Part shown: positions 1 through 26,285 of the stretch, one piece after another
Layout of the letters: every line of letters begins with the position of its first letter
Position numbering within the stretch: the stretch's first letter is position 1
Source: a virus
Taxonomy: Duplodnaviria > Caudoviricetes
Length of the DNA: 26,285 bases
Strand: one strand, 5' to 3'
IMG/VR virus record: IMGVR_UViG_3300006922_000151
Location: 1-26,285 of that record
Program-made: the position numbers and the translations under genes
Notes under the pieces: generated by a model
The model's input: the letters and a program-made list of their open reading frames with translations, nothing else
The model's database searches: none
Told to the model about the DNA's origin: nothing

Positions 1-16
1 ATTCAATTTATCCATA

Positions 17-304
17 ATGCATTTATACTATCCATTCCCTGATGAAGCAGCTGCTATTACAGCAAGTGAAGATATCTATGACTTAAATGCTCCTCCAAGA
101 AGTGAGCGTGTAACCTTATATGCTTTTGATTGGTTCCCTAACTCAGGTAACCCAACATATGTTCTTGCTTGGCAAGATGAGCCACAAACATTTAACACAG
201 GGGACATACTAGATGGAATTACAGCACTTACAGAAGAAGAAGCTATTGATGCTGGTTATCTATTAGGTGATGATCATAGTGGGATGCGTAATGCAGGAGG
301 TTAA
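17..304 (+). CDS. hypothetical acidic protein (95 aa)
   Basis: Clean ORF with protein-like composition, same orientation as the downstream cluster; no motif recognised. Confidence 0.7.
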   Translation: MHLYYPFPDEAAAITASEDIYDLNAPPRSERVTLYAFDWFPNSGNPTYVLAWQDEPQTFNTGDILDGITALTEEEAIDAGYLLGDDHSGMRNAGG

Positions 305-355
305 TTACTAGTTGATTTCATAAAAATTTAGTATATTATATGTATAAGATATATT

Positions 356-556
356 ATGCCAGCTAAAAAGACAACAAAGAGAAAGACTAAGTCTAAAGTA
401 AATGAGGCGGGTAATTATACTAAGCCTACAATGCGTAAGAACTTATTTAATAGAATCAAAGCAGGAAGTAAAGGTGGTAAACCTGGACAGTGGTCTGCTA
501 GAAAAGCTCAGATGTTAGCCAAGCAATATAAGGCTAAAGGTGGTGGTTATAAATAA
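356..556 (+). CDS. small Lys-rich basic protein, resembling the N-terminal half of DUF5872-type proteins
   Basis: NYTKP..R...KGGKPGQWSARKAQMLAKQYKAKGGGY matches my recollection of the DUF5872 N-terminal motif; very basic. Confidence 0.75.
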   Translation: MPAKKTTKRKTKSKVNEAGNYTKPTMRKNLFNRIKAGSKGGKPGQWSARKAQMLAKQYKAKGGGYK

Positions 557-561
557 TAGTT

Positions 562-834
562 ATGCCTTTAAAGAAGTCACAAAAGAGTCTTAAGAAATGG
601 GGAGACCAAAAGTGGATGACCTCTGGTACTCATGCCAATAAGAAAAAAGGCAAGAAGAAAGAAGTTAAATCTAAGGGTAAGAAAAGGTATTTACCTAAAG
701 CTGCTTGGGATGCTCTATCTCCATCGGAGAAAAGATCAACTAACCGAGCTAAAGCTAAGGGTAATAAGAAAGGTAAACAGTTTGTATCTCAACCAAAGAA
801 GGTTAAGAAAAAGACTGCAAAGTATAGAAAATAA
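562..834 (+). CDS. small Lys-rich basic protein, resembling the C-terminal half of DUF5872-type proteins
   Basis: SQKSLKKWGDQKW...RYLPKAAWDALS..EK......K..GKQFV resembles the DUF5872 C-terminal part (from recall); starts 5 nt after the previous stop. Confidence 0.75.
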   Translation: MPLKKSQKSLKKWGDQKWMTSGTHANKKKGKKKEVKSKGKKRYLPKAAWDALSPSEKRSTNRAKAKGNKKGKQFVSQPKKVKKKTAKYRK

Positions 835-846
835 AATTTAGAAATT

Positions 847-1080
847 ATGCCAGCTAAAAAAATAACTGCAGCTAAAAAGAAAGGTACAATGCCAAAGAGT
901 GTTGTTAATTATAAGAAAGGTGGATCAACAAGTACAAAGTCTATTAAAGCACCTGCAGGTTTTCATTGGATGAAAAGCGGATCAGGTTTTAAACTAATGA
1001 AACACTCAGGTAAATTTGTACCTCATAAAGGTGCATCTTTAACAGCTAAATTTCCTATTCAAAAGGTACATAAAAAGTAA
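847..1080 (+). CDS. small Lys-rich basic hypothetical protein
   Basis: 77 aa, starts MPAKK, contains no Asp/Glu; TAATG overlap with the next ORF. Confidence 0.75.
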   Translation: MPAKKITAAKKKGTMPKSVVNYKKGGSTSTKSIKAPAGFHWMKSGSGFKLMKHSGKFVPHKGASLTAKFPIQKVHKK

Positions 1081-1370
1081 TGCCTACTAAAAAAGATTCA
1101 AGATTAGCAAAAGCTGGTGTATCAGGTTACAATAAACCCAAGCGTACACCTAGCCATCCTACTAAGTCACATGTAGTTGTAGCTAAGGACGGTGATAAGA
1201 TTAAGACTATACGTTTTGGTCAGCAAGGTGCTAAGACTGCGGGCAAACCTAAAGCAGGTGAATCATCCAGAATGAAAAAGAAACGTTCTAGTTTTAAAGC
1301 TAGGCATGCTAAGAATATCAAGAAAGGTAAGATGTCTGCAGCATACTGGGCTGATAAAGTTAAGTGGTAA
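1080..1370 (+). CDS. small basic viral protein (RFG...RH...AAYW motif; possibly DUF5754-like)
   Basis: KSHVVVAK..KTIRFGQQG...SFKARH...SAAYWADKVKW pattern of small basic viral proteins; family name from memory, unverified. Confidence 0.75.
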   Translation: MPTKKDSRLAKAGVSGYNKPKRTPSHPTKSHVVVAKDGDKIKTIRFGQQGAKTAGKPKAGESSRMKKKRSSFKARHAKNIKKGKMSAAYWADKVKW

Positions 1371-1400
1371 AAAGAAGGGGCTAGTTAAAGCCCCTTTCTT
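1371..1400. terminator. bidirectional intrinsic terminator between convergent gene blocks
   Basis: Stem AAGGGGCT (1375-1382)/AGCCCCTT (1389-1396), 6-nt loop, A-rich left flank and T-rich right flank, located at the +/- junction. Confidence 0.8.
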
Positions 1401-1411
1401 ATTTGGTTTTA

Positions 1412-1492
1412 TCAATTACCACAGTCTTCAGACTTTAACACAAGCCTGACTACAAGTATAGCAGCTAATATAATTAATATCCCTTTAAACAT
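1412..1492 (-). CDS. small hydrophobic peptide (26 aa, MFKGILIILAAILVVRLVLKSEDCGN)
   Basis: Read manually (absent from the ORF track); ATG 2 nt after the upstream TGA; single TM-like segment; fills the gap before the terminator. Confidence 0.5.
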   Translation of the reverse strand: MFKGILIILAAILVVRLVLKSEDCGN

Positions 1493-1494
1493 TA

Positions 1495-2316
1495 TCAAAA
1501 GTCAAAAGAAATTGTTAACTGATTATCCTCCTCCATCTCAAGATCTACAATATCTAATAAAGCATCACTTTTCTTTATGCCCATTTGACCAAGTACATCA
1601 TTAACCATAAACTTATGGAACTTCTGGCTATCACTTAACCAACTACGTGGATGAGTTTTCTTTAGGGCATGTGTAACATGATTATAGAAAGCCCAAGCAT
1701 TATCTTGATCAGCTTGATAATCATAAGAAGGTTTCTTTATCTCCTGCTTAACTATACTTATCTGATTAAGATCTAATATATCTTTATCACAATATAAGCG
1801 TCCAACCAACTCAGACTGTTCTTTAATAGATAGATCAGTTTTTCTAAAAGAATCACGATCAGCTATGATCTGACCAAAGTGCTTATCTACACTACCCAGC
1901 TGTTTATTTATCTGCTCAGTAATATCATAGTCAGCAGATCCTGTATGCTTACGGGCAAAACTCATTTCACCTGCTACCATTCCATTGTTACATACCATAA
2001 CATATGCGCCAACTGCACACTGAAATCTAACAGACTTATCATAAGAGTTTGTCCAGCCAAACATCATCCCTAACTCCTTATCAGTAGTTCCGTCATTTGA
2101 TAAAGGAGATATGTGATAGACACCTTGTGCAACCTTTGCGTCAACGTTTGCTCTATAGAGCTCCCTATCAACTTTTAAACCCAAGTCATTAAATAACTTT
2201 TGGGTTGTATTTATAATGTCACTATGTGACACAACTGTATATGAGCCACCATGATTAGGTAATGGTGCGCTCTCTAAATACGTTCTTGTTGTTTCTTGTG
2301 GTCTTTTATAACCCAT
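1495..2316 (-). CDS. DUF932/DUF3871-like phage protein
   Basis: Y.VVSH..II, G..NSYD.S..F..AVGAYV.VC.NGM and RKHTG motifs typical of DUF932-like proteins. Confidence 0.7.
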   Translation of the reverse strand: MGYKRPQETTRTYLESAPLPNHGGSYTVVSHSDIINTTQKLFNDLGLKVDRELYRANVDAKVAQGVYHISPLSNDGTTDKELGMMFGWTNSYDKSVRFQCAVGAYVMVCNNGMVAGEMSFARKHTGSADYDITEQINKQLGSVDKHFGQIIADRDSFRKTDLSIKEQSELVGRLYCDKDILDLNQISIVKQEIKKPSYDYQADQDNAWAFYNHVTHALKKTHPRSWLSDSQKFHKFMVNDVLGQMGIKKSDALLDIVDLEMEEDNQLTISFDF

Positions 2317-2356
2317 AATAAAATTTTAATAAATATAGTAATAGTTACTGAGTCAG

Positions 2357-3190
2357 TTAAAATATATATCTAATTGTTTCCACAGGGAAATATTTTGTGT
2401 ATATATCTTTGAACTCATTTAGTAATCTAGACTTATGCTGAAGAGGATATCTCATTATCCCTTTGGAGTTTTTAACTTCGCGGGAATACTTCATTATCTC
2501 TCTAGCCTTATCTGTAGTTTTAACCATTTGATTTTTATGATTAGTTAAAGCAATAACCTCGCATTTATTAACACCAACCTGTTCTTTAACCTGCGCAAAC
2601 AAATTATCATACTCTTCTTTCCATCCTGGATAAAAGATTAATGGACTATAATTTATATGCACCTCCCAACCTAGAGTCTTCAGTCTATTTATATCAGGGA
2701 TTCTTTTATGAATCTTCTGCATGCCTGGCTCAAGTATATTAGAATACTCTTGTGGCATTAGACTAACACGCACTCTTGGTGGCTTGTTAAAATGATTTAC
2801 ATCTAGTTTAAGCTGACCTGGGAACTTAGTTGCCATTGTAGCTTTTAACTGTGGGTGATCATCATAACGTTTTATATAATCTATCAAAGGCTCAGGCATA
2901 TACTTCTGCATCCTGACAAGATCTGTGTTACATGCAATGTCTACCATTGTATAAACTGGGTCTTGTTGATCAGGGACTTTAGTAAAAGACTTTTCCCATT
3001 CAACTACAGAATTAAATATATCATCAACGTTCTTGTTGACAAACACTCTAGTGCCATTGTACCTAGACATATAACAATAAGTGTTAACGCACCCTCCAAA
3101 GCAACCATAGATTACATTTGGAGCGATGCAGTTAGCACTATTGTTATTGTCCTTGGTAACTAATGTTTTAGTTTCCTGGACCTTAACCAT
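2357..3190 (-). CDS. splB: spore photoproduct lyase-like radical SAM protein
   Basis: SANCIAPNVIYGCFGGCVNTYCY cluster motif ending in YCY; DIACNTD aligns with the SPL H-donor Cys segment; ATK, RVRVSLMP and VHINYSPLI also SPL-like. Confidence 0.8.
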   Translation of the reverse strand: MVKVQETKTLVTKDNNNSANCIAPNVIYGCFGGCVNTYCYMSRYNGTRVFVNKNVDDIFNSVVEWEKSFTKVPDQQDPVYTMVDIACNTDLVRMQKYMPEPLIDYIKRYDDHPQLKATMATKFPGQLKLDVNHFNKPPRVRVSLMPQEYSNILEPGMQKIHKRIPDINRLKTLGWEVHINYSPLIFYPGWKEEYDNLFAQVKEQVGVNKCEVIALTNHKNQMVKTTDKAREIMKYSREVKNSKGIMRYPLQHKSRLLNEFKDIYTKYFPVETIRYIF

Positions 3191-5187
3191 TAAAATAATT
3201 TTAATTGATTGATTGGCTTAGCAAGAATATTATTTATCTCTTGCTCTATAGCATTAATATAGTAAGCTTCATCAACATCATACTGCTCCCACCTGGGTTT
3301 GATATCAATCTTATTAAAGATGGTTTGCATCCACCTACCGGCTTCAAGCTGAACCTCACGATTATCCTTTTGATTAACCTTGACTATCTTGATGCCACTC
3401 TTAGAGATATAATATCTATTGATCTTCTGCAGTTTGTCTTCTTTATAAAGACCCTTCTCCAAAGACCGAGCCATCTGCATCCAATCACCCTTAGACTTAC
3501 CACCTATACAATAGTCTAAAATATTTCTATTGTTCTTAAGGAAGTCTCTGGGTAATATATTATGCACAAAGTAATGATATATAGCCTTCTTAATAATAAG
3601 CTTAGACTTATTCTTATGGAGCTGTAAATTATGAAAGTCAAATCTACCTTTCATCTTAGCAGGTGCATGCAAGAACTTACCATCCTTTATCTTAAATAGA
3701 TAGTGTGGGTTTTTCTTCTTAATATCCCGCCATGTAGTCATATCAGTTTCTTTATATCCAAGGACACCGATATAATTATTTACATCACCTATTATAAGCT
3801 TCTCATATTGATCATGTTCAAGGTTAAGATTAGTAATCTCTTCCCACTCTTTGCAGATATCCATGTACTCATCAATATACTTACGAGGGATAATAGTCTC
3901 TATACCATCTGTATTCTGCATAAGCGCAGTAGAATTTGGTATACGTTCCATTATCATTTCATAGAGCATCATTAGAGTAAGCTGACCATTAATTGTGATT
4001 TTCATACACAGCTCAGGGTCATAGAAAAAACTATTCTTATCATTACTAAGCCCGAAGGTTGAGTTAAGAATAATCTTATAGACATAGTTCATAGGATTAC
4101 TCTTAGGTATCTTCTTTCTTTCTTTGAAGAACCACTCATACTGATCACAGAATTCATCCTCTGGAAAATGACCTGGAGAAAATCTATTCTTGATGGCTAA
4201 GTTAGGATAGAAGCTTGTAACATCTGAAGACATAATAACATACTCATCATCACTCTCAAATATTCCACTTCTTCTAGCACCATGCACACCACCTAAACCA
4301 AAGTGAGTGACTACATCTTTGTACTCCATTTTATACTTAAGCCCACCCCTAAGATTGTCAGTCATTATCTCAGCAGCCTTAAACCTTTCATGAAGTAACT
4401 TAAATTCAGGTACATTAAACTTAACATATGGAAGTATAATATCTTTGAACTTAACCACTCTTCTAAAGGTCCTAAGCTTTTTAATTTGAGACTTACTCTT
4501 GCCAAGTTTATCTGAAAGATAATAAGCAAATAACTCCTTGCTTATCCTGGGCTCTGAGGCACTAAACAAATTAATACCATAGGTTTTAGTTAGCTCCTTT
4601 CTTAGTGCTATCTGTGACTTTGATCTATTAAATATTTCCTTAGTTGACCTAACATCATTTATACAGTACGTTGTTATCATCTCAATCTGCTCTGGAGTTT
4701 CAATCTGTGTAGAGTGATGGAGAGGCATATCAATCATGTCATCCCAATCCATACTATACTGAATCCACTTTAGACTAGATCTCTTGGCCGGGTTATCCCA
4801 ATGATGCATTTTAAATATATCAATCTGCCCAATCTTAATTTTCCAATGAGGATAATCCAAGAACTGACCCGCATTACTTTTCTGTATGCAAGAGGTAGCA
4901 TACTGATATATCATGCTTGCTATTTGATCTGCATCTTCTATATCCCAAGAAGAACAGTTATCAAGAATATACTGAGTAACCTGAGCATCAAACGCTAAAC
5001 CATTATAGGATATGTGCCATTCCTTATTCTTAATGTTATCACCAAGAAATAATAGGAATGCCTTGAAGTCATTCTGAGATTTATGTACGGTAAATACTTT
5101 TCTCTCAGATGTTTTATAGTGCTCAAACACTGCTATGAAGCAATTGTTGAGCGTCTCATAATCCATTATCCAATGATTCATACGCAT
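3190..5187 (-). CDS. family B DNA polymerase with 3'-5' exonuclease domain
   Basis: Exo motifs DYET, YNGLAFD, YCINDV; polymerase motifs DVTSFYPN (A), KIILNSTFG (B), NTDGI (C). Confidence 0.93.
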   Translation of the reverse strand: MRMNHWIMDYETLNNCFIAVFEHYKTSERKVFTVHKSQNDFKAFLLFLGDNIKNKEWHISYNGLAFDAQVTQYILDNCSSWDIEDADQIASMIYQYATSCIQKSNAGQFLDYPHWKIKIGQIDIFKMHHWDNPAKRSSLKWIQYSMDWDDMIDMPLHHSTQIETPEQIEMITTYCINDVRSTKEIFNRSKSQIALRKELTKTYGINLFSASEPRISKELFAYYLSDKLGKSKSQIKKLRTFRRVVKFKDIILPYVKFNVPEFKLLHERFKAAEIMTDNLRGGLKYKMEYKDVVTHFGLGGVHGARRSGIFESDDEYVIMSSDVTSFYPNLAIKNRFSPGHFPEDEFCDQYEWFFKERKKIPKSNPMNYVYKIILNSTFGLSNDKNSFFYDPELCMKITINGQLTLMMLYEMIMERIPNSTALMQNTDGIETIIPRKYIDEYMDICKEWEEITNLNLEHDQYEKLIIGDVNNYIGVLGYKETDMTTWRDIKKKNPHYLFKIKDGKFLHAPAKMKGRFDFHNLQLHKNKSKLIIKKAIYHYFVHNILPRDFLKNNRNILDYCIGGKSKGDWMQMARSLEKGLYKEDKLQKINRYYISKSGIKIVKVNQKDNREVQLEAGRWMQTIFNKIDIKPRWEQYDVDEAYYINAIEQEINNILAKPINQLKLF

Positions 5188-5193
5188 ATATTT

Positions 5194-5223
5194 AAAAAAA
5201 AAGAGGAGCTAATGCCCCTCTTT
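5194..5223 (-). terminator. intrinsic terminator upstream of the polymerase gene
   Basis: Minus strand GAGGGGC-ATTA-GCTCCTC (one G.U pair) followed by a run of about 9 T. Confidence 0.75.
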
Positions 5224-5245
5224 CTAAACTCATTATATATACATA

Positions 5246-5674
5246 TTAGCCCATAGTAATTATAGGACTCTTTTCGGTAGCTTCTACATCTACCATGTAC
5301 TGTGAGAAGTCAAAGGACTCAGCATTCACAGCAAATATATTGATAAAATCACTTATCTCTTGCTTGTCAGTAAGATAAAACTCAGAGAAAGTATCAACAA
5401 GTCTTCTTTCCTCACGGACAGTCTTGCCTCCTTCTCTTGGTGTACCCTTTACTCTTAATGGATCACCATTGTCATCAAGCTTTGGGATCATGTGATAAGA
5501 TTGCTTCATTACCTTGCTAATAACAGCAAGAATTCCTGAAGAAGGATCATACATAGCTTCAACATACGGAGACTCCGGAGTAGCTGGAACTAAATTAAAA
5601 GATTTTGCTCCTCTAAATGATGAGGAAACTATTAACATATTTTTACCAATTGTCATACTAAATAATTTGTACAC
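5246..5674 (-). CDS. hypothetical protein (start may be the ATG at 5656)
   Basis: Full ORF in operon orientation; the track start is GTG, and the ATG at 5656 has an A/T-rich leader. Confidence 0.75.
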   Translation of the reverse strand: MYKLFSMTIGKNMLIVSSSFRGAKSFNLVPATPESPYVEAMYDPSSGILAVISKVMKQSYHMIPKLDDNGDPLRVKGTPREGGKTVREERRLVDTFSEFYLTDKQEISDFINIFAVNAESFDFSQYMVDVEATEKSPIITMG

Positions 5675-5686
5675 GTAAATATAATA

Positions 5687-6241
5687 CTATTTGACTAAAT
5701 TTAAAGGGAAGGGAATATTTTCTTCACAACATTCCAAACTCATATCAGGTGGTGTACACACCTCATGCGCCTTTTTAATTACATCAATATCAACATCAAG
5801 ATACTCTGCATATTTATCATGGACCTCTTCTGGAAAAAGAAATCCTAATACACACTGAGCTATCTGACCATCATCACCAAAAAAATTAAGAATAATTTCC
5901 ATGGTGTCATCACTAAGTTTAGAGTACTTACCCTGCAAAAACAAATCTATATCATTCTTATAAGAGGATAGATCAAAAGCATACAACATATGCTCCTTAT
6001 CAATCTCATGAAAGTCATGATAATGCTTGTTAGAGAATATAACCCTCTCCTCAAACTTTCTGAACTCCGGTGAGTCCTCTACTATATAAGAACAGATTAA
6101 CTTATAGTCTCCTGTATTATATAAAGTATCCCAACACATATAAGTATTCTCAGGAACAAAGTCTATACCTTTCTTTATTCCCAGTAAAGGATAGATAAAT
6201 ACTTTGCTCTTCTGAAAATACTTTGTGTATACCCCACGCAT
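5687..6241 (-). CDS. hypothetical phage protein
   Basis: 184 aa ORF coupled to the nuclease gene by TAATG overlap; no motif recognised. Confidence 0.75.
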   Translation of the reverse strand: MRGVYTKYFQKSKVFIYPLLGIKKGIDFVPENTYMCWDTLYNTGDYKLICSYIVEDSPEFRKFEERVIFSNKHYHDFHEIDKEHMLYAFDLSSYKNDIDLFLQGKYSKLSDDTMEIILNFFGDDGQIAQCVLGFLFPEEVHDKYAEYLDVDIDVIKKAHEVCTPPDMSLECCEENIPFPLNLVK

Positions 6242-7227
6242 TATAATACTACTTTATCTTCCAGAAACTGATATGGGAGTGAATAGTTTTTGTTAGAGTA
6301 ATGATATTGTGCAATGTTGAGAGTTTCAAATAGGCTTTCCATCCAGTTTGTTATAGTCTTATCAGATACATCAAATACATATACTTGATCATACTTATCA
6401 ATAACTACAAACTTAAAAGTAATTTTATAACTGTCACGGTCTTCAGACAGGTTTTCATAAACAAGTTTACAATACATTGCTGCTTGTAACCAATAATTAT
6501 AGAAGTCTACAGTCTCAGCAAAGTCAGCAATTGTTTTACCCGTGGTCTTGAGATCACAGATAGTAACTTGTTTAGCTTCCTCATCTATAGAGTAATAATC
6601 TACAAAACCTTTAAGTCCAAAGTTTCTATCATGTAACCCGCATTCAAGATATGCTTCTGCATGTGTAGTAATAGAGTCTAACTCAAAGTCTGTTTCTTCT
6701 TTAGTAAATAAAGACATCACATCTTTGTTAGACTTAATCAACTCAACTCTATCCTTACATCTCTGTAGGGTATCCATATCAACAACATCTGCCTTAGTGT
6801 TCTTAATGAACTGCCAATAAGCTTCATTGTCTTCTGTCTGGATCTTAGCCAGCCTTTTCTCATCTTCTTTAAAAGATTGATAAAGGTTTGCAATCTTAAG
6901 TGCATCTAGAATATAAACATTGCTATTTACATTTAGCAGGTCACCTCTTATTTTGTCTTTTAAATAGTACAAAACCTTCTTAATGCTATCTGTAGGTGTC
7001 TTGCCCGGCATAACGCTGAACTTTTCCTCTAAATTTTGTGGTTCAAATAAGAGACAGTGTATAAGCTTACCCTCTACAAGGTGCTTATCTAATCTCTCTT
7101 CTCTGTCCTTTAGTATATAGTCTTTATAAAAAAGACTTGGGGAGAATAATAATTTGTTTAACGATGAGTAACTAAACTTAAACGGTTTAGAATAGAACTC
7201 TTTTTCTTTCTGATTATTTCTTTGCAT
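6241..7227 (-). CDS. PD-(D/E)XK exonuclease (RecE/PDDEXK_1-like)
   Basis: SYSSL, G.LIH, LKGFVD, ICDLKTT and YWLQAAMY motifs. Confidence 0.85.
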   Translation of the reverse strand: MQRNNQKEKEFYSKPFKFSYSSLNKLLFSPSLFYKDYILKDREERLDKHLVEGKLIHCLLFEPQNLEEKFSVMPGKTPTDSIKKVLYYLKDKIRGDLLNVNSNVYILDALKIANLYQSFKEDEKRLAKIQTEDNEAYWQFIKNTKADVVDMDTLQRCKDRVELIKSNKDVMSLFTKEETDFELDSITTHAEAYLECGLHDRNFGLKGFVDYYSIDEEAKQVTICDLKTTGKTIADFAETVDFYNYWLQAAMYCKLVYENLSEDRDSYKITFKFVVIDKYDQVYVFDVSDKTITNWMESLFETLNIAQYHYSNKNYSLPYQFLEDKVVL

Positions 7228-7243
7228 AATAAAAGTTTAAGAT

Positions 7244-7267
7244 GGGGTGCAGCTTTCGCCACACCCC
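7244..7267 (-). terminator. GC-rich hairpin with GAAA tetraloop (weak terminator or processing/stability element)
   Basis: Minus strand GGGGTGTGGC-GAAA-GCTGCACCCC, 10-bp stem with G.U pairs; U-tract is poor. Confidence 0.55.
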
Positions 7268-7283
7268 TACCAATCATAGCATC

Positions 7284-8399
7284 TTAAAATGGAAATTGCA
7301 TTCTTGCATCAAGCATGGCATTACCATACTCAACCATTTCCTTCTCTGTGAACTCCTTTGCATACTTAGGAGCTAACATTAAATCACTTTCCTTAATATG
7401 AAACGGCATTGTATACTTGCCTGTATCTGGATCATCATCAAAGAATCTATTGAGAAATCTTTGGAAGATTAAGTGTCTAACTTTCCTAACAGCAAAGCTA
7501 GTCATTGCACCCTTAGATAATAAGACATCAAAGAATTTATTATAACCATGTGCATAATCATCCAGTTGCATATTAAATGCAGAGAAAGTAGATCTCATTG
7601 CTTTAACACCAACAGAGTTCCAAGCTTTACACCTACACAAAGCACTATGATTTGTCACAAGTAATAAAGCAATCTTATCTATAGACTCAGTATAATTACT
7701 ATTAGCCATAACATTCAATGCCATACTAACATCATCCTCATTTCTTGTACGAATCATCTCCTCTAGATTATCAAACATCTCTTCTGTAATAGTAGGAGAC
7801 TCCCTACTAATTATATTATTAATGTTTTCATCTAGTACAAGATTACCACAGCTAAGTAATGTATATGCATTTTTATTCATGAATGATGAATGGTACCTTT
7901 GTTCTAACATAGGAGTAACTGTTATCTCATAATTTCTATGCCAACCATAACCCTTATACTCAAACAATACAAGCTCATGATCATTTATAGCAGCTCTTAC
8001 ATCAGATAAATCTATAGTCTGCTTATGCATATCAGCTAGCACACTTTCAACCGTATAGACTCTAGGACGATAACCAAGCTGATTTACCTTAGAGTTAATA
8101 TACTTCTGAGACACAACAAGATAGTCAGCTTTATGGTAATCTCTTGTAACAGAGATTCCATAATCTTGTTTAATGCTACTTATTTTATCTCTTGATAGAT
8201 TAATCTTTGGATATCTATATAAGGTTTTACCCTTTAGAGAATTACTATCTAGTTTATTAAAGATTATACCCGTTTCACGGCTAAAACTTTCCATAGAGTT
8301 TCTATCCATATTATAATCAAAAATATAACCATCTGTAATAGATACAACATGACCACCATCTTTCTGACTATCAATCAGTACTTTTAACGCTTTCTTCAT
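7284..8399 (-). CDS. BRCT-like domain protein, paralog of 8371-9456
   Basis: LKGKTLYRYPKINLSRDKI..IKQDYGISVTRDYHKADYLVVS fits the BRCT b1-a1-b2-b3 pattern; shares an ED.V.MA..I/M.N..Y block with the neighbouring ORF. Confidence 0.6.
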   Translation of the reverse strand: MKKALKVLIDSQKDGGHVVSITDGYIFDYNMDRNSMESFSRETGIIFNKLDSNSLKGKTLYRYPKINLSRDKISSIKQDYGISVTRDYHKADYLVVSQKYINSKVNQLGYRPRVYTVESVLADMHKQTIDLSDVRAAINDHELVLFEYKGYGWHRNYEITVTPMLEQRYHSSFMNKNAYTLLSCGNLVLDENINNIISRESPTITEEMFDNLEEMIRTRNEDDVSMALNVMANSNYTESIDKIALLLVTNHSALCRCKAWNSVGVKAMRSTFSAFNMQLDDYAHGYNKFFDVLLSKGAMTSFAVRKVRHLIFQRFLNRFFDDDPDTGKYTMPFHIKESDLMLAPKYAKEFTEKEMVEYGNAMLDARMQFPF

Positions 8400-9456
8400 T
8401 TTTCATATATTTTAAAAACTCTGGTTTAATCTCAACCTTAAACTTGTATATAGGATGTTCTTTAGGTGGAATACCACTGTAGTCACCAGATGATTGAACC
8501 AAGATTCCCTTTCTATAAATAGGTTCTAGATAAGTAAATGATGCATGATCAAGCTTATCTTTTTTCTGTAGATACTCAATCATTTCAAATGAATTCATTC
8601 GTGAGAGCCTAAGAAAATTACTATTATTAATCCATGTCTTTACATCTTTGCTCCTATTGTATCTATAGATTCTACCACTAATTTTATCAGCTAGCTTCCA
8701 TAGATAATGAATGTTAGTTTCATAATCAATGTTAGGTAAGATTGTTCCTGCCATAGCAACATCCTCATCACTCCCCCATACCTGTGAAGATATAGTTTCT
8801 ACTAGCTCCTCATCAAGAGTTAGCTTAGTTACTGGGTTATTAATAATATCCTCAGCATTAACTACACCAAGCCCATTATTAATTGCATCAATAATCTTAA
8901 GACCACCACTGGTGATATACTTCTCATAAATACTATCTGCATTATGAGCATTGTTTGCATATGCGCTAGGTCTATAACCTAGATTTGGATGAAACAAGAC
9001 TGGTTTATCATGATCATTTACCATATCAACAAAGCTATCATCACCCATACGAGAAATACCATAGCCTACATGATATCCTTTTAAATAACCCATAATATTT
9101 CTATTAGAGAATGGTGTCCATCTATCTGTGGTAATATCGAGAGTCTTACCAACTACAACTGCATCAGCTCTTTTAAGACTACCTGTTATTTTAATATCAA
9201 GAGCATCAAGTATACCACGCATTCTATCATTAGTGTACTCTATGCCTGGTACAATATAAACCTTCTTACCTTTTAAAGCAGAAGGATCAGTATCAGATTT
9301 AAAAGTCTCTACAAAATCATAATACTGCGATGTCTTAATAAGATATATGCTATTATTAAAATTCTCCTCAGAGTAAGGCACGGTTATTTCCCGTACCTCA
9401 CTCCCAAGAAGATTTGTAACAATAGTATTATCAATTTCTTGAAATACTTTACTCAT
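8371..9456 (-). CDS. BRCT-like domain protein, paralog of 7284-8399
   Basis: LKGKKVYIVPGIEYTNDRMRGILDALDIKITGSLKRADAVVVG fits the BRCT pattern; TAATG-coupled to the MoxR gene. Confidence 0.6.
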   Translation of the reverse strand: MSKVFQEIDNTIVTNLLGSEVREITVPYSEENFNNSIYLIKTSQYYDFVETFKSDTDPSALKGKKVYIVPGIEYTNDRMRGILDALDIKITGSLKRADAVVVGKTLDITTDRWTPFSNRNIMGYLKGYHVGYGISRMGDDSFVDMVNDHDKPVLFHPNLGYRPSAYANNAHNADSIYEKYITSGGLKIIDAINNGLGVVNAEDIINNPVTKLTLDEELVETISSQVWGSDEDVAMAGTILPNIDYETNIHYLWKLADKISGRIYRYNRSKDVKTWINNSNFLRLSRMNSFEMIEYLQKKDKLDHASFTYLEPIYRKGILVQSSGDYSGIPPKEHPIYKFKVEIKPEFLKYMKNEESVKSTD

Positions 9457-10715
9457 TACGCCATTGTCATTTTAACAATCTGAGGCTTCATCATAAGCTT
9501 ATTAAACTTCTGACGAGCACCATTGTATATTGTTCTTACAACAAGATACTTCAGATCATTTGTGAAATAATCCCCAGTGCAAAGCTTCTCTAGTCTAGTG
9601 ACTATATCAGCAGTTACTGAGTTCTCTTTAGAATAAACTATAGAATAGTTTGCTAGCCTTGTAGCTAGTATAGATGCAATATCTGCACGATAAGAATCAC
9701 CTGTACCAACAGAAGACTTTAGCTTATTAATAATCTTAGACTCATCTTGATCAGTCAATAACTCTTTTGGAGTTACAATCTTATCAAGTCTATTATTAAT
9801 AAACATAGTAAACATAGAAGCAAACTCACTACCAACAGAGCCCTCACCAATCATTTGGATCATAGCTAGGTTGTCTTCAAAGCTATCAAAGCTAGAGATA
9901 GAATTAAAGAACGTAGTGATAGATCTTGCATTAGTCTCTTGTGTTACCAACTCTGGGTTAAGTAATAAGAAGTTAATACATCTAGTATCTATGTTAGCTT
10001 CCTCTGCCCATCTTGCCCATACATCTACATCAAACTTTAGGTTTGCAGTAATATAACGAGTCTTCTGAGCTGAGTCAATACTATTAACCATGTAGTCTCC
10101 ATTGTCTGGATTAGCAGTTAGAATGATGTGCCAGTCCTTTGGTAAAGACCAAGAGATATAAGTCTGTCTATCAATCAACTCCATAACAGCTTGAATGAAT
10201 CTTACATCAGCACGGTTCCAATCATCTAGTAGAAGGATACCACCTTGCTTCTTATCAGAGATCCACTCAGGTGCACAGTAAGACATTCTATTCTTACCGG
10301 TCATCTTGAAACCATTCTTTAGATACTCATTGACTGCGAGTTCATCTACCCATTGACCTACCTTTTTGGTAGTCATGTTTGCAACATCCTTAGATGCAGC
10401 AGCTCTTTGTGCAGCAGTATAGTTAAGTCCATCATTAGATGGTTTAACTTTTACTTCCTTGTACATCTGAAACTGACGTACAGGAAAACCTACTAAGTCA
10501 CCCAGCTCCTCAATCTGTGCTAGATTCAACTTTACAAAGTCTAGATTATTCTCCTTTGCCAACTCTACAATAGTAGAAGTCTTACCAATACCTGATTCAC
10601 CCACAACCTCAATTGCAACTGGTGGTTTACTTTCCTTCTGTAGGAAACGATTGTTTTCTATAATGTGGTTTACAAAACCCTTTAGTTCATCAATATTTAA
10701 ATTAACTTGTGCCAT
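9456..10715 (-). CDS. MoxR-like AAA+ ATPase
   Basis: Walker A GESGIGKT, E.GDL.G.P, Walker B LLLDDWNRA, LTANP, D.AQKTR; adjacent to a vWA gene. Confidence 0.88.
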   Translation of the reverse strand: MAQVNLNIDELKGFVNHIIENNRFLQKESKPPVAIEVVGESGIGKTSTIVELAKENNLDFVKLNLAQIEELGDLVGFPVRQFQMYKEVKVKPSNDGLNYTAAQRAAASKDVANMTTKKVGQWVDELAVNEYLKNGFKMTGKNRMSYCAPEWISDKKQGGILLLDDWNRADVRFIQAVMELIDRQTYISWSLPKDWHIILTANPDNGDYMVNSIDSAQKTRYITANLKFDVDVWARWAEEANIDTRCINFLLLNPELVTQETNARSITTFFNSISSFDSFEDNLAMIQMIGEGSVGSEFASMFTMFINNRLDKIVTPKELLTDQDESKIINKLKSSVGTGDSYRADIASILATRLANYSIVYSKENSVTADIVTRLEKLCTGDYFTNDLKYLVVRTIYNGARQKFNKLMMKPQIVKMTMA

Positions 10716-11884: not shown

Positions 11885-12139
11885 CTATATCATTGATTCA
11901 TAATACTTGCATTGATCATAAAAGTGTTCAGTAGGATATGCATGAAACTCTACTACATCATTATTATTATGTAGTCTAAACATTTCTGATACATACTCTT
12001 CCATAGAATATACTGGATAGTCTATTACACCAGTCTTTCTTATTACCTTAAATCTTACAGTATTAAACAAAAACTCAGGAGAAGACTTTGTAGCATCATT
12101 ATAATCATCTGTTGTTTCAAACGTAAATTTAAACTTCAT
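11885..12139 (-). CDS. hypothetical protein (84 aa)
   Basis: ORF in operon orientation, overlapping the upstream stop and ending 3 nt before the vWA start. Confidence 0.65.
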   Translation of the reverse strand: MKFKFTFETTDDYNDATKSSPEFLFNTVRFKVIRKTGVIDYPVYSMEEYVSEMFRLHNNNDVVEFHAYPTEHFYDQCKYYESMI

Positions 12140-18617: not shown

Positions 18618-19052
18618 ATGTCACATAAAAAAACTGTATTTGATCCCAAAGGTGTGATTGAGGATATTCAAATATCCACAACATATATATCAGGCTTACA
18701 ATCTATCCTAATGACTATGATGGGTTTCCTAGAGGATAAGACAGCTTTACCTGAGACGCTTGCAAAATTTAAAAAATTAACAGGAGGAGAAACTGATATA
18801 CAATTATCTCCTGCTGAATCACAGTTATACATTATTATCTCATTAATCCAAGAACTTAAGACAAAAGCTATTAAGCAGGGACTATCATCTGAAGTAGAAA
18901 TATCTGATGATGTCAATGCAAAAGTAGAGGAGATGTCTAAAGAGCTTCTTACACTAGATGAGAGTGATGATGAGTCTGTAAAAGAATTTGCTGAGAGATA
19001 CAAGGATATGTATGACCAAGTATACTCTGAGCTAAATAAGAAATCATCTTAA
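18618..19052 (+). CDS. acidic helical hypothetical protein, counter-oriented
   Basis: 144 aa with ATG start and protein-like composition; exactly fills the gap between two minus-strand genes. Confidence 0.72.
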   Translation: MSHKKTVFDPKGVIEDIQISTTYISGLQSILMTMMGFLEDKTALPETLAKFKKLTGGETDIQLSPAESQLYIIISLIQELKTKAIKQGLSSEVEISDDVNAKVEEMSKELLTLDESDDESVKEFAERYKDMYDQVYSELNKKSS

Positions 19053-25046: not shown

Positions 25047-25141
25047 ATAATAAAAATAGATAATACCATACCACTTATGTCGTAATTGTGCAACTAATAT
25101 TTAATTAGTTACTATATATAGTGTAGTAATATAGCTACAGT

Positions 25142-25381
25142 TTAAACTAAAGTAATTACTCTACCAGTTCTTATAATATACTTTTTGTCTTTAAGCTCTC
25201 TTATCAACCTATCTACCTGGCGCTGACTAATGTTATTTAGATCTGCTAGTGTAGATATTGAGGGATAGCATTCCCGTTTATTGTTTGCATATAAAGACAA
25301 TGTACTATACAAACCTTTGGCTTGTATTGAAAGTTCTGGATCTGAGATCACATCATAGTTTACTATACCAAAGCGTTTCAC
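25142..25381 (-). CDS. winged helix-turn-helix protein (HTH_36-like)
   Basis: D.ELS..AKGLY..L..YA.....CYPSISTLA..NISQRQV.R.I.ELK.K.YI. Confidence 0.78.
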   Translation of the reverse strand: MKRFGIVNYDVISDPELSIQAKGLYSTLSLYANNKRECYPSISTLADLNNISQRQVDRLIRELKDKKYIIRTGRVITLV

Positions 25382-25584
25382 TCAACATGATTATTAAAAA
25401 TAATAATGAGTGCATCTGCTAATGGTGTTCCATCAGTAAGCTTAGGATCTTGAAAGTTATATTTCATATTCATAAACTTACCAAACTCTGCAGGGTATAA
25501 ACCTTCCTGCTTGGCTTGATCATAATCTTTTTTCCAAGTGTTAAGCTCAGATCTAAGAAGTTCTTGGGATATTCTAGCTGCCAT
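25378..25584 (-). CDS. hypothetical protein (68 aa)
   Basis: 4-nt overlap with the HTH gene. Confidence 0.65.
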   Translation of the reverse strand: MAARISQELLRSELNTWKKDYDQAKQEGLYPAEFGKFMNMKYNFQDPKLTDGTPLADALIIIFNNHVE

Positions 25585-25586
25585 AG

Positions 25587-25673
25587 TTAAAGGGTTATCA
25601 TTGTTAAGATTCCTAATCCAGTTACTGCAATGATTGCAATAACCATTAATGCTTCAAATGTTCTATAGCTCAT
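25587..25673 (-). CDS. small membrane peptide (28 aa, MSYRTFEALMVIAIIAVTGLGILTMITL)
   Basis: Read manually; ATGA overlap with the upstream ORF; stop 2 nt before the next ATG; one TM segment. Confidence 0.55.
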   Translation of the reverse strand: MSYRTFEALMVIAIIAVTGLGILTMITL

Positions 25674-25792
25674 CGTACTGCTGGGTTATTCTTACAACTC
25701 CTATAAGCACTGCAAGATGTAGATGTCATACCTACAAATAGAACAAGGGCAATCAGATACAAAAACATACGGTGTTTAATTAAATACTTCAT
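25670..25792 (-). CDS. small lipoprotein-like peptide (40 aa, MKYLIKHRMFLYLIALVLFVGMTSTSCSAYRSCKNNPAVR)
   Basis: Read manually; basic n-region, hydrophobic h-region, TS-C lipobox-like site. Confidence 0.55.
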   Translation of the reverse strand: MKYLIKHRMFLYLIALVLFVGMTSTSCSAYRSCKNNPAVR

Positions 25793-25810: not shown

Positions 25811-26005
25811 AAAAAAAATAAGCAGTTTATATACATACTCAGGTATTCCTATACGAGTTTTTACGTTTGTTTTATATTATATACACCACCTACAACACAG
25901 GTGTACACCAGATCTTCATATGATCTGTCAGTACCGGTTATCCAATACCTATTACAAACAACGTATAGATATCTACTAAAGCTGGTTGTAACAACTTATG
26001 TAGAT
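25811..26005 (-). ncRNA. putative structured RNA domain ending in an H-type pseudoknot and U8
   Basis: Several short helices (25971-26005, 25909-25927, 25887-25903, 25849-55/25962-68); their single mismatches are G.U only on the minus strand; pseudoknot at 25819-25846. Confidence 0.4.
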
Positions 26006-26012
26006 GCAAGAA

Positions 26013-26196
26013 AGACTACAGTACCCTGAACCAAAAACACTTAAATAAAAAAGGTACTGCAGTCTATAAGGAACTGTAACATTGCACAACATGAACGACC
26101 AAGAAAAGAATTAATGCAATGCTACAGTTATATTAAACTATGACACCCGAGTTAAACAATGTTACATTCACGTATACAAAGCCGGGTGCCATAGTT
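26013..26196 (-). ncRNA. array of three tandem long-stem/large-loop hairpins (putative sRNA array)
   Basis: Stems 26013-25/26053-65 (13 bp), 26072-86/26115-29 (15 bp), 26136-49/26183-96 (14 bp); loops 27/28/33 nt; both linkers 6 nt; each stem has one A-C mismatch on + that is G.U on -. Confidence 0.7.
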
Positions 26197-26201
26197 ATTA
26201 G

Positions 26202-26285
26202 TTAAGAAGATATAGGAAACTTCTCTCTAAGTTCTTTAAGGTATTTAAGAGTTAAATCCATCTCATCTAATTCACGCATTGCCTC
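26202..26285 (-). CDS. 3' end of a CDS truncated by the window edge (...EAMRELDEMDLTLKYLKELREKFPISS)
   Basis: Open frame from the window end to TAA at 26202-26204. Confidence 0.55.
   Translation of the reverse strand, partial: EAMRELDEMDLTLKYLKELREKFPISS

Follow-up and report, generated by a model that had tools for sequence, protein, structure and literature searches.

A lineage-restricted array of tandem hairpins in a putative crAss-like phage, with a predicted antisense partner for its first loop

The C4 antisense RNA of phages P1 and P7 consists, in the part of its description available to us (PMC5320573), of a conserved scaffold with variable loops that pair with mRNA of the phage itself near the translation start. 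It is a single three-stem RNA with two short loops, processed from a longer phage transcript by an RNase P cut, and it occurs in temperate enterobacterial phages. The stem-loop arrays of the TIGR systems are, according to the accessible portion of PMC12045711, also phage-borne and are made up of tandem units joined by short linkers, each unit enclosing a variable sequence in its own palindromic stem. In phage lambda, the base-pairing small RNA PreS/LPR1 tunes a replication-related gene; in the available text (bioRxiv 10.1101/2024.10.31.621285) it is a single RNA of the Hfq network, directed against host mRNA, and not an array of closed hairpins. The crAss-like phage phi14:2 produces early long non-coding RNAs from the early strand of its early region (available part of bioRxiv 10.1101/2020.03.07.982082), and the early polycistronic RNA of T7 carries intergenic helices as RNase III sites (accessible sections of PMC6938266). 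The VIPR vrRNA (bioRxiv 10.64898/2026.04.26.720920) and the viral sgRNAs (10.64898/2026.06.01.729453) are presented, in the parts of these preprints open to us, as phage RNAs that guide repression to DNA targets, promoters among them. The available part of PMC8375218 contains nothing on phage non-coding RNA.

The window, the whole stretch of 26,285 nucleotides analysed here, contains a tandem array of hairpins. This array is a real structured element, uncatalogued and confined to one lineage, for which a single antisense partner has statistical support. No description of it was found in the literature covered, outside which lie most subscription journals and preprint supplements, including the phi14:2 transcript tables that possibly bear on known early RNAs. 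The array is formed by three inverted repeats with stems of 13, 15 and 14 bp (positions 26013-26196); the arms are spaced by 27, 28 and 33 nt and the AU-rich linkers measure 6 nt each. These repeats, arm gaps and linkers had been described in a first-pass annotation and are all present as described. The units are:

26136-26149/26183-26196, minus strand: hairpin unit 1, the first on the RNA strand; 14-bp stem, 15 bp with G.U; loop 26150-26182; absent from L013, L093 and L095
26072-26086/26115-26129, minus strand: hairpin unit 2; 15-bp stem, 16 bp with G.U; loop 26087-26114, with three loop alleles among strains
26013-26025/26053-26065, minus strand: hairpin unit 3; 13-bp stem, 15 bp with G.U; loop 26026-26052, whose 3' half is invariant

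Each stem contains one A.C mismatch on the plus strand, which becomes G.U on the minus strand, just as annotated, and when G.U pairs are allowed the minus-strand stems lengthen to 15, 16 and 15 bp. The bias towards the minus strand that had been proposed is borne out by folding both strands: the minus strand folds at -67.5 kcal/mol (z -7.2) and the plus strand at -49.3 kcal/mol (z -5.5), with 0 of 200 shuffles as low in either case. The 5' arms of the three stems differ from one another by transitions only, and here too the annotation was correct. The loops, which had been called unrelated, do differ in sequence, but they share a U-rich make-up (U accounts for 14 of 33, 16 of 28 and 17 of 27 residues, or 42-63%), contain few C and have short UGUU-type motifs in common. 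Some internal structure is predicted in the loop of unit 1. One RNA run (0.05 share) leaves the array uncovered, which says nothing for or against its transcription.

The array has the extent given to it in the first-pass annotation, but the element as a whole is larger, with a second structured domain directly behind the array:

25835-26010, minus strand: downstream structured domain, a small hairpin plus a multi-branch junction

Compensatory change is seen in 4 of the 43 pairs of this domain (five sequences). Scored alone, it has a z of -2.3; one of its arms is present in two of the five aligned sequences, and in L086 most of the domain is deleted. A model of the domain (R2), run against 100 sources, found it in this lineage only.

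The array is present in 10 of 128 related loci, counting those whose sequence reaches 2 kb or more upstream of the anchor gene. Several of the ten belong to the same phage, and they represent seven distinct alleles with two or three units each; three loci (L013, L093 and L095) contain units 2 and 3 only. Across the seven alleles, pairing in the three-helix structure is kept in 287 of 287 cells, and both sides have changed in 3 of the 43 array pairs, a degree of covariation reached by 17 of 500 shuffles. When the three unit types are aligned with each other, all 192 cells are paired, and both partners have changed in 7 of the 12 pairs; the rows of this alignment are related and not independent, and they demonstrate homology of the stems, not separate events. 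Variable columns number 10 of 82 in the stems, by transitions throughout, versus 33 of 93 in the loops, 20 of these by transversion or gap. Most of the stem variation of the array is found in unit 3, where every change preserves pairing. The pairing record and the column counts support the earlier description of a minus-strand scaffold that is conserved and covaries, while its loops are more variable. As for the loops being variable inserts, they vary and units have been gained or lost between strains, but they are not hypervariable spacers: each array position retains its own loop family across strains. With each position keeping its own family (33 of 93 columns vary), the array is not a CRISPR-like acquisition array, a candidate that was rejected because the loops are orthologous across strains and bound to their position; no direct-repeat family was found over the array, and no Cas family match in the proteins scanned.

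Similarity between array loci starts at the first stem, where four different, strain-dependent upstream gene contexts join. The stop codon annotated 5 nt before the array is real in the window, but the gap depends on the strain: L001, L013 and L086 have the 5 nt, L132 has 1 nt and L084 ~76 nt.

Beyond the lineage, the search with a covariance model of the unit (R1), which had been suggested at the outset, gave no match in 81 + 52 sources (~2.15 Mb of related-phage DNA), nor in five more virus records and positions 1-10 kb of phi14:2; it recovers homologous covarying stems in relatives, but delimits a narrow family in a single lineage. A blastn comparison with cultured phages returned six short matches (E 0.3-0.9). 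A degenerate unit pattern found 28 loci in viral contigs, of which three are the arrays and the remainder chance, and a unit-2 pattern found none in species genomes. Comparison with Rfam, also suggested, gave no family match: at the gathering score the tRNA alone is found in the whole window, and at E up to 5 in L001 4300-8000 three sub-threshold chance matches appear, none of them credible. In G008, a complete relative, two tandem long hairpins with 23-36-nt loops are located at ~98860-99028 on the minus strand, both of which are missed by R1, and clusters of two stems occur in the early regions of L015, L034, L050 and L066. The large-loop hairpins of the three complete relatives have no own-genome partner scoring above 35.

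When the array is set beside the known systems, it would work most like C4, yet it is not a member of that family: there is no Rfam model match and no three-stem fold with a' and b' loops. Unlike C4, it is composed of tandem single-stem units with 27-33-nt loops, has one long G.U-rich match and resides in a phage that we read as crAss-like; processing from a longer transcript would be a likeness. With the TIGR-Tas systems it shares the tandem units in palindromic stems. However, Pfam scans covering 30 + 27 proteins of the window and its neighbourhood found no Nop-domain gene, the pair of box C and box D with two 8-12-nt spacers is absent from the loop alignments as judged by eye, and the best 9+9 split match of each loop in the 58 kb of own sequence has two mismatches, which equals the result of 12 shuffles per loop. 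Moreover, loop 1 of the array pairs continuously with one strand, and there are only two or three units. The hallmarks of VIPR given in the available part of its description are also missing, with no alternating GGY/NN repeats in the array and no RAMP family in the proteins scanned, as is the guide followed by a repeat:anti-repeat duplex that marks the viral sgRNAs in the text open to us. No homologous unit and no tandem large-loop hairpins were found in phi14:2 (model search of positions 1-10,000; repeat search of 1200-4700). Of the three loops, only loop 1 shows, within the 58 kb of own sequence, what base-pairing antisense small RNAs have, namely unpaired sequence that complements a regulatory part of an mRNA.

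The own sequence of the phage comprises the window, L001 and G002, which are of the same phage, and totals 58 kb. On the minus strand of the window, itself an entire virus contig of 26 kb, lies a replication module with DNA polymerase, primase, Sak4, DnaB and a helicase. The portal, terminase, capsid and primase of phi14:2 match own contigs (E 1e-6 to 4e-17), while the phi14:2 virion RNA polymerase has weak matches in G004 and G008 (E 4e-7 and 2e-5), two of the three complete relatives of ~113 kb, and none in the 58 kb of own sequence. Judging by such protein matches, the carrier is probably a crAss-like phage, about half of whose genome would lie outside the 58 kb. The best relative of a left-end protein is 84-85% identical. 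We infer a Flavobacteriia host from the promoter type described below; genome-bin matches, Flavobacteriales in one of five, add little support for this host. The array shares its strand with the early genes and follows the first early ORF of L001 at a distance of ~1.8 kb; its surroundings and other features of the window are:

26202-26285, minus strand: 3' end of the 71-aa ORF upstream of the array, cut by the window end; complete in L001 (6343-6558)
25670-25792, minus strand: 40-aa ORF directly downstream of the array region, within the co-inherited block
25378-25584, minus strand: 68-aa ORF, a candidate partner by linkage only, in 10 of 10 array-bearing loci
25142-25381, minus strand: 79-aa HTH gene, with no match in the array-bearing L013, L086, L093, L095 and L132
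23402-23475, minus strand: single tRNA gene (Rfam RF00005)
18618-19052, plus strand: 144-codon ORF within the minus-strand block, where it overlaps a minus-strand ORF of 111 codons
2357-3190, minus strand: spore photoproduct lyase-like gene adjoining the DNA polymerase gene (Pfam PF20903, E 1.5e-17)

The 68-aa ORF is 88-100% identical in all ten array loci versus at most 40% in 80 other loci with a match, and its identity holds even where the genes beyond are 53-74% identical. Since this gene is conserved despite diverged neighbours, the array and the two small genes move as a block; the missing match for the HTH gene in five array loci, together with downstream genes that are 53-74% identical, indicates that two genome backgrounds share this block.

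Other elements of the genome were seen in passing. A short perfect inverted repeat precedes the first gene of the second early block (L001 5508-5540), and an 8-mer of this repeat recurs at window positions 25073-25080 and 25994-26001, on the early strand. In L192 (G002), an AT-rich motif is common to the regions upstream of several late genes, the ORFs at 11956, 18253, 19859 and 21186; it does not fit TAnnTTTG and is a candidate late promoter. The early region of the complete relative G005 contains a second copy of the 177-aa SSB-like gene (25340-25735), 38% identical.

Going beyond what the first-pass annotation had claimed, loop 1 has a significant antisense partner in its own genome. The pairing stretch and the region it matches are:

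26150-26180, minus strand: the 31 nt of loop 1 that can pair, as antisense, with window 5666-5696 (minus strand)
5666-5696, minus strand: predicted loop-1 target, comprising the end of a 184-aa ORF with its stop codon, then the -7 promoter box and the leader, which the site covers to within 10 nt of the start codon
5676-5683, minus strand: -7 promoter box TATATTTA, the last base deviating from the consensus
5246-5656, minus strand: conserved 136-aa gene behind the target site, its start set by eleven close homologs of equal length
5198-5225, minus strand: terminator-like hairpin that follows the 136-aa gene and precedes the DNA polymerase gene (3190-5187)

The duplex between loop 1 and 5666-5696 is gapless over 31 nt, with 24 Watson-Crick pairs, five G.U pairs and two mismatches, and has an energy of -28.4 kcal/mol; the segment with the target ranks first of 1730 at -28.1 kcal/mol, with the runner-up at -23.8. 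Its score of 49 compares with a null mean of 31-32 and with 34 at most in the opposite polarity, and is reached by 0 of 300 shuffles over 32.7 kb and by 1 of 2000 over 58 kb (Gumbel p 4e-4). A comparison of the 3.75-kb early region with all remaining own sequence yields no other match of at least 44, and this one spans the loop almost exactly. Among all related loci searched with G.U allowed, the best antisense partner of loop 1 is in the window itself: the match tops 202 loci (2.54 Mb), where the next score is 38, and in a further 95 loci the highest score, 45, falls at L291:13601, again on a TAnnTTTG box and in the same register. If G.U pairs are left out, the loop-1 match loses its significance, with 129 of 2000 shuffles doing as well. 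Three relatives that lack the array, scanned in the same way, yielded 16 matches of at least 44, two of them at 49; from these relatives we estimate the chance for any of the three loops at ~0.005, a figure that ignores the fit to the loop boundaries and the landing on a promoter. Four other loop-1 alleles, paired against the target of the window and not against those of their own genomes, reach -20.7 to -23.5 kcal/mol, and their duplexes are bulged or mismatched where they face the -7 box; in the source genomes of two of these alleles, the neighbouring genes share 97-100% identity with those of the window.

The target site has the features of a promoter. TAnnTTTG is the -7 element of the Bacteroidota primary sigma factor, and its last G is nearly invariant, according to the available part of PMC6847099, which also links the A at position -12 to initiation and is our source for the lack of Shine-Dalgarno pairing in the hosts of crAss-like phages. 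The element occurs at the target site in 17 of 18 related loci, representing nine of ten distinct upstream sequences, and the box before the 136-aa gene of the window has an A where related sequences keep the final G. The loop-1 match spans the promoter from about -25 to +6, and an RNA started at this internal promoter would hold only ~6 nt of the site. The 136-aa gene has its own promoter site and a terminator-like hairpin within the replication module; because this hairpin parts it from the DNA polymerase gene, the site concerns the 136-aa gene most directly. The 136-aa protein has no Pfam or NCBIfam match and no PDB match below E 0.5, and its Atlas clusters are labelled hypothetical, with a minority ATP11 label. 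Blocking 5666-5696 in silico causes no consistent shift in the predicted accessibility of the start codon, and activation by unmasking of the start codon is unsupported by this prediction.

For loops 2 and 3, no significant partner was found in the 58 kb of own sequence (the window plus the G001-G003 stretches searched) or in the 202 + 95 related loci (~4 Mb). An exact pattern for loop-2 and loop-3 targets found seven loci in viral contigs, namely the three arrays and four sets of internal codons in an unrelated gene. The idea that the loop complements resemble start-codon contexts was rejected, as a weight matrix ranks 18-35% of internal ATGs higher.

Tentatively, and with not quite an even chance of being right, we read the array as a modular antisense-RNA cassette of a crAss-like phage. 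The observations that bear on this reading are the structure and its strand asymmetry, the covariation, the modular gain and loss of units, the complementarity of loop 1 and the conserved promoter box at its target site. The abundance and long life of the early intergenic RNAs of phi14:2 (available part of bioRxiv 2020.03.07.982082) are counted in its favour, and against it that only one of the three loops has a significant partner. In such a cassette, the array, lying on the early-gene strand, would be carried in an early RNA, in which the closing stems may shield the unit ends and keep the loops open. Cuts in the 6-nt AU-rich linkers or in the stems would free the units, each of which would present its loop as antisense sequence. 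Loop 1 is predicted to pair with the read-through mRNA over the stretch from -40 to -10 relative to the AUG, in which the -12 A lies, and the resulting duplex would probably lower translation of the 136-aa gene. RNA from the internal promoter, with ~6 nt of the site, would escape loop 1, and a timing switch between read-through and promoter-driven expression may result. Targets of loops 2 and 3 might lie in the remaining half or so of the genome, or in the host.

A different explanation, which we consider unlikely, is that the stems are processing or stability signals of the RNase III type in an early polycistronic mRNA, that the loops are targetless and that the loop-1 match arose by chance or is the relic of a captured promoter fragment. 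The array does have an intergenic position in the early transcript, right behind stop codons, its 13-16-bp helices are less variable than its loops, and two loops are without a target. The RNase III sites of T7 stand singly between genes, and no antisense role is known for their loops. RNase III cutting of polycistronic transcripts is described for T7 in the accessible sections of PMC6938266, but three tandem units with position-specific, conserved loop halves go beyond the requirements of cleavage, loop 1 is filled by its match, which lands on a conserved promoter, and the element is absent from 118 of 128 related loci.

Coverage of the promoter, in register with the -7 boxes at both top matches, could also mean that the units are guide RNAs of a protein, perhaps the 68-aa protein, and that loop 1 pairs with the non-template DNA of the promoter, switching transcription by the host polymerase off, or on where the box has lost its G. 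We regard this as improbable. The mRNA initiated at the promoter lacks most of the site, the box of the window departs from a consensus kept in nine of ten distinct relatives, the 68-aa gene is inherited together with the array in ten of ten loci and the architecture resembles the TIGR stem-loop arrays (accessible portion of PMC12045711). Against it, no Nop, RAMP, Cas or TnpB family was found among the proteins scanned, there is no box C/D pattern and split-strand targeting does no better than shuffles, the five G.U or G.T wobbles and the bulges of the other alleles would suit RNA-RNA pairing better than invasion of DNA, and the 68-aa protein has no usable Atlas match. It would be a similarly long shot to see here a new protein-assisted, RNA-guided system, in which ~30-nt closed-hairpin guides in an exchangeable array, together with the 68-aa protein, would read Bacteroidota sigma promoters as DNA, loop 1 addressing a promoter of the phage itself, one whose -7 box lacks the near-invariant G, and loops 2 and 3 other phage or host genes.

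With their 42-63% U and few C, their common UGUU-type motifs and their tolerance of indels, the loops might instead be held open by the stems as decoys for a host RNA-binding or defence protein early in infection. We give this little credence: the loops are not copies of one motif, there is no likeness to Rfam families, CRISPR repeats and ToxI included, and the loop-1 match would be left unexplained.

Equally little credence is given to loops aimed mainly at host mRNAs, for instance to loop 2 of some strains blocking the start codon of the asparaginyl-tRNA synthetase gene (asnS). The loop-2 alleles of L084/L132/L083 and of L086 lie exactly across the asnS start in G123 and G131, two related small Flavobacteriales genomes of 1.2 Mb (sites L370 1501-1524 in G123 and L369 in G131), at -25 to -27 kcal/mol. 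This was, however, a post hoc find in ~1 Gb, in which loop-2 alleles match 4 and 5 of 401 Flavobacteriales genomes versus 5 and 1 control matches, the asnS find coming from the search with 4 matches and 5 controls. As close relatives, G123 and G131 amount to one event, the loop-2 allele of the window itself reaches only -11 to -13 kcal/mol at asnS, the remaining nine of the eleven asnS starts in the family pair weakly, none of seven other pattern matches checked is at a gene start, and loops 1 and 3 are at chance level in both genomes. The asnS match is at chance level and is a lead only. Loop 3 matches 41 of the 401 genomes, mostly very AT-rich small ones, and neither loop 2 nor loop 3 has a significant target among the 401.

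That the hairpins belong to a replication origin or a virion-polymerase promoter and form in single-stranded DNA is very improbable: the G.T wobble favours the minus strand in DNA too (-31.5 vs -26.2 kcal/mol for the plus strand) and HTH and SSB-like genes lie near the array, but the array is absent from 118 of 128 related loci and varies in unit number, and the turn in cumulative GC skew, at 2-kb resolution, goes with the switch of coding strand ~2 kb beyond it.

Gene timing in crAss-like phages is poorly known. In phi14:2, the early non-coding RNAs are abundant and of unknown function, and no early-promoter motif was found, as far as the available part of its description goes (bioRxiv 2020.03.07.982082). 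The reach of our findings extends to seven alleles of one lineage and, for a partner, to one loop. Within it, loop 1 and the conserved phage promoter and leader form a defined RNA-target pair that is testable in Flavobacterium johnsoniae. Should the units act on promoter DNA together with a protein, they would constitute a new RNA-guided system. If, on our preferred antisense reading, the loops are swappable antisense modules, the array would be an uncatalogued design of phage gene control and possibly a scaffold for programmable knock-down in Bacteroidota.
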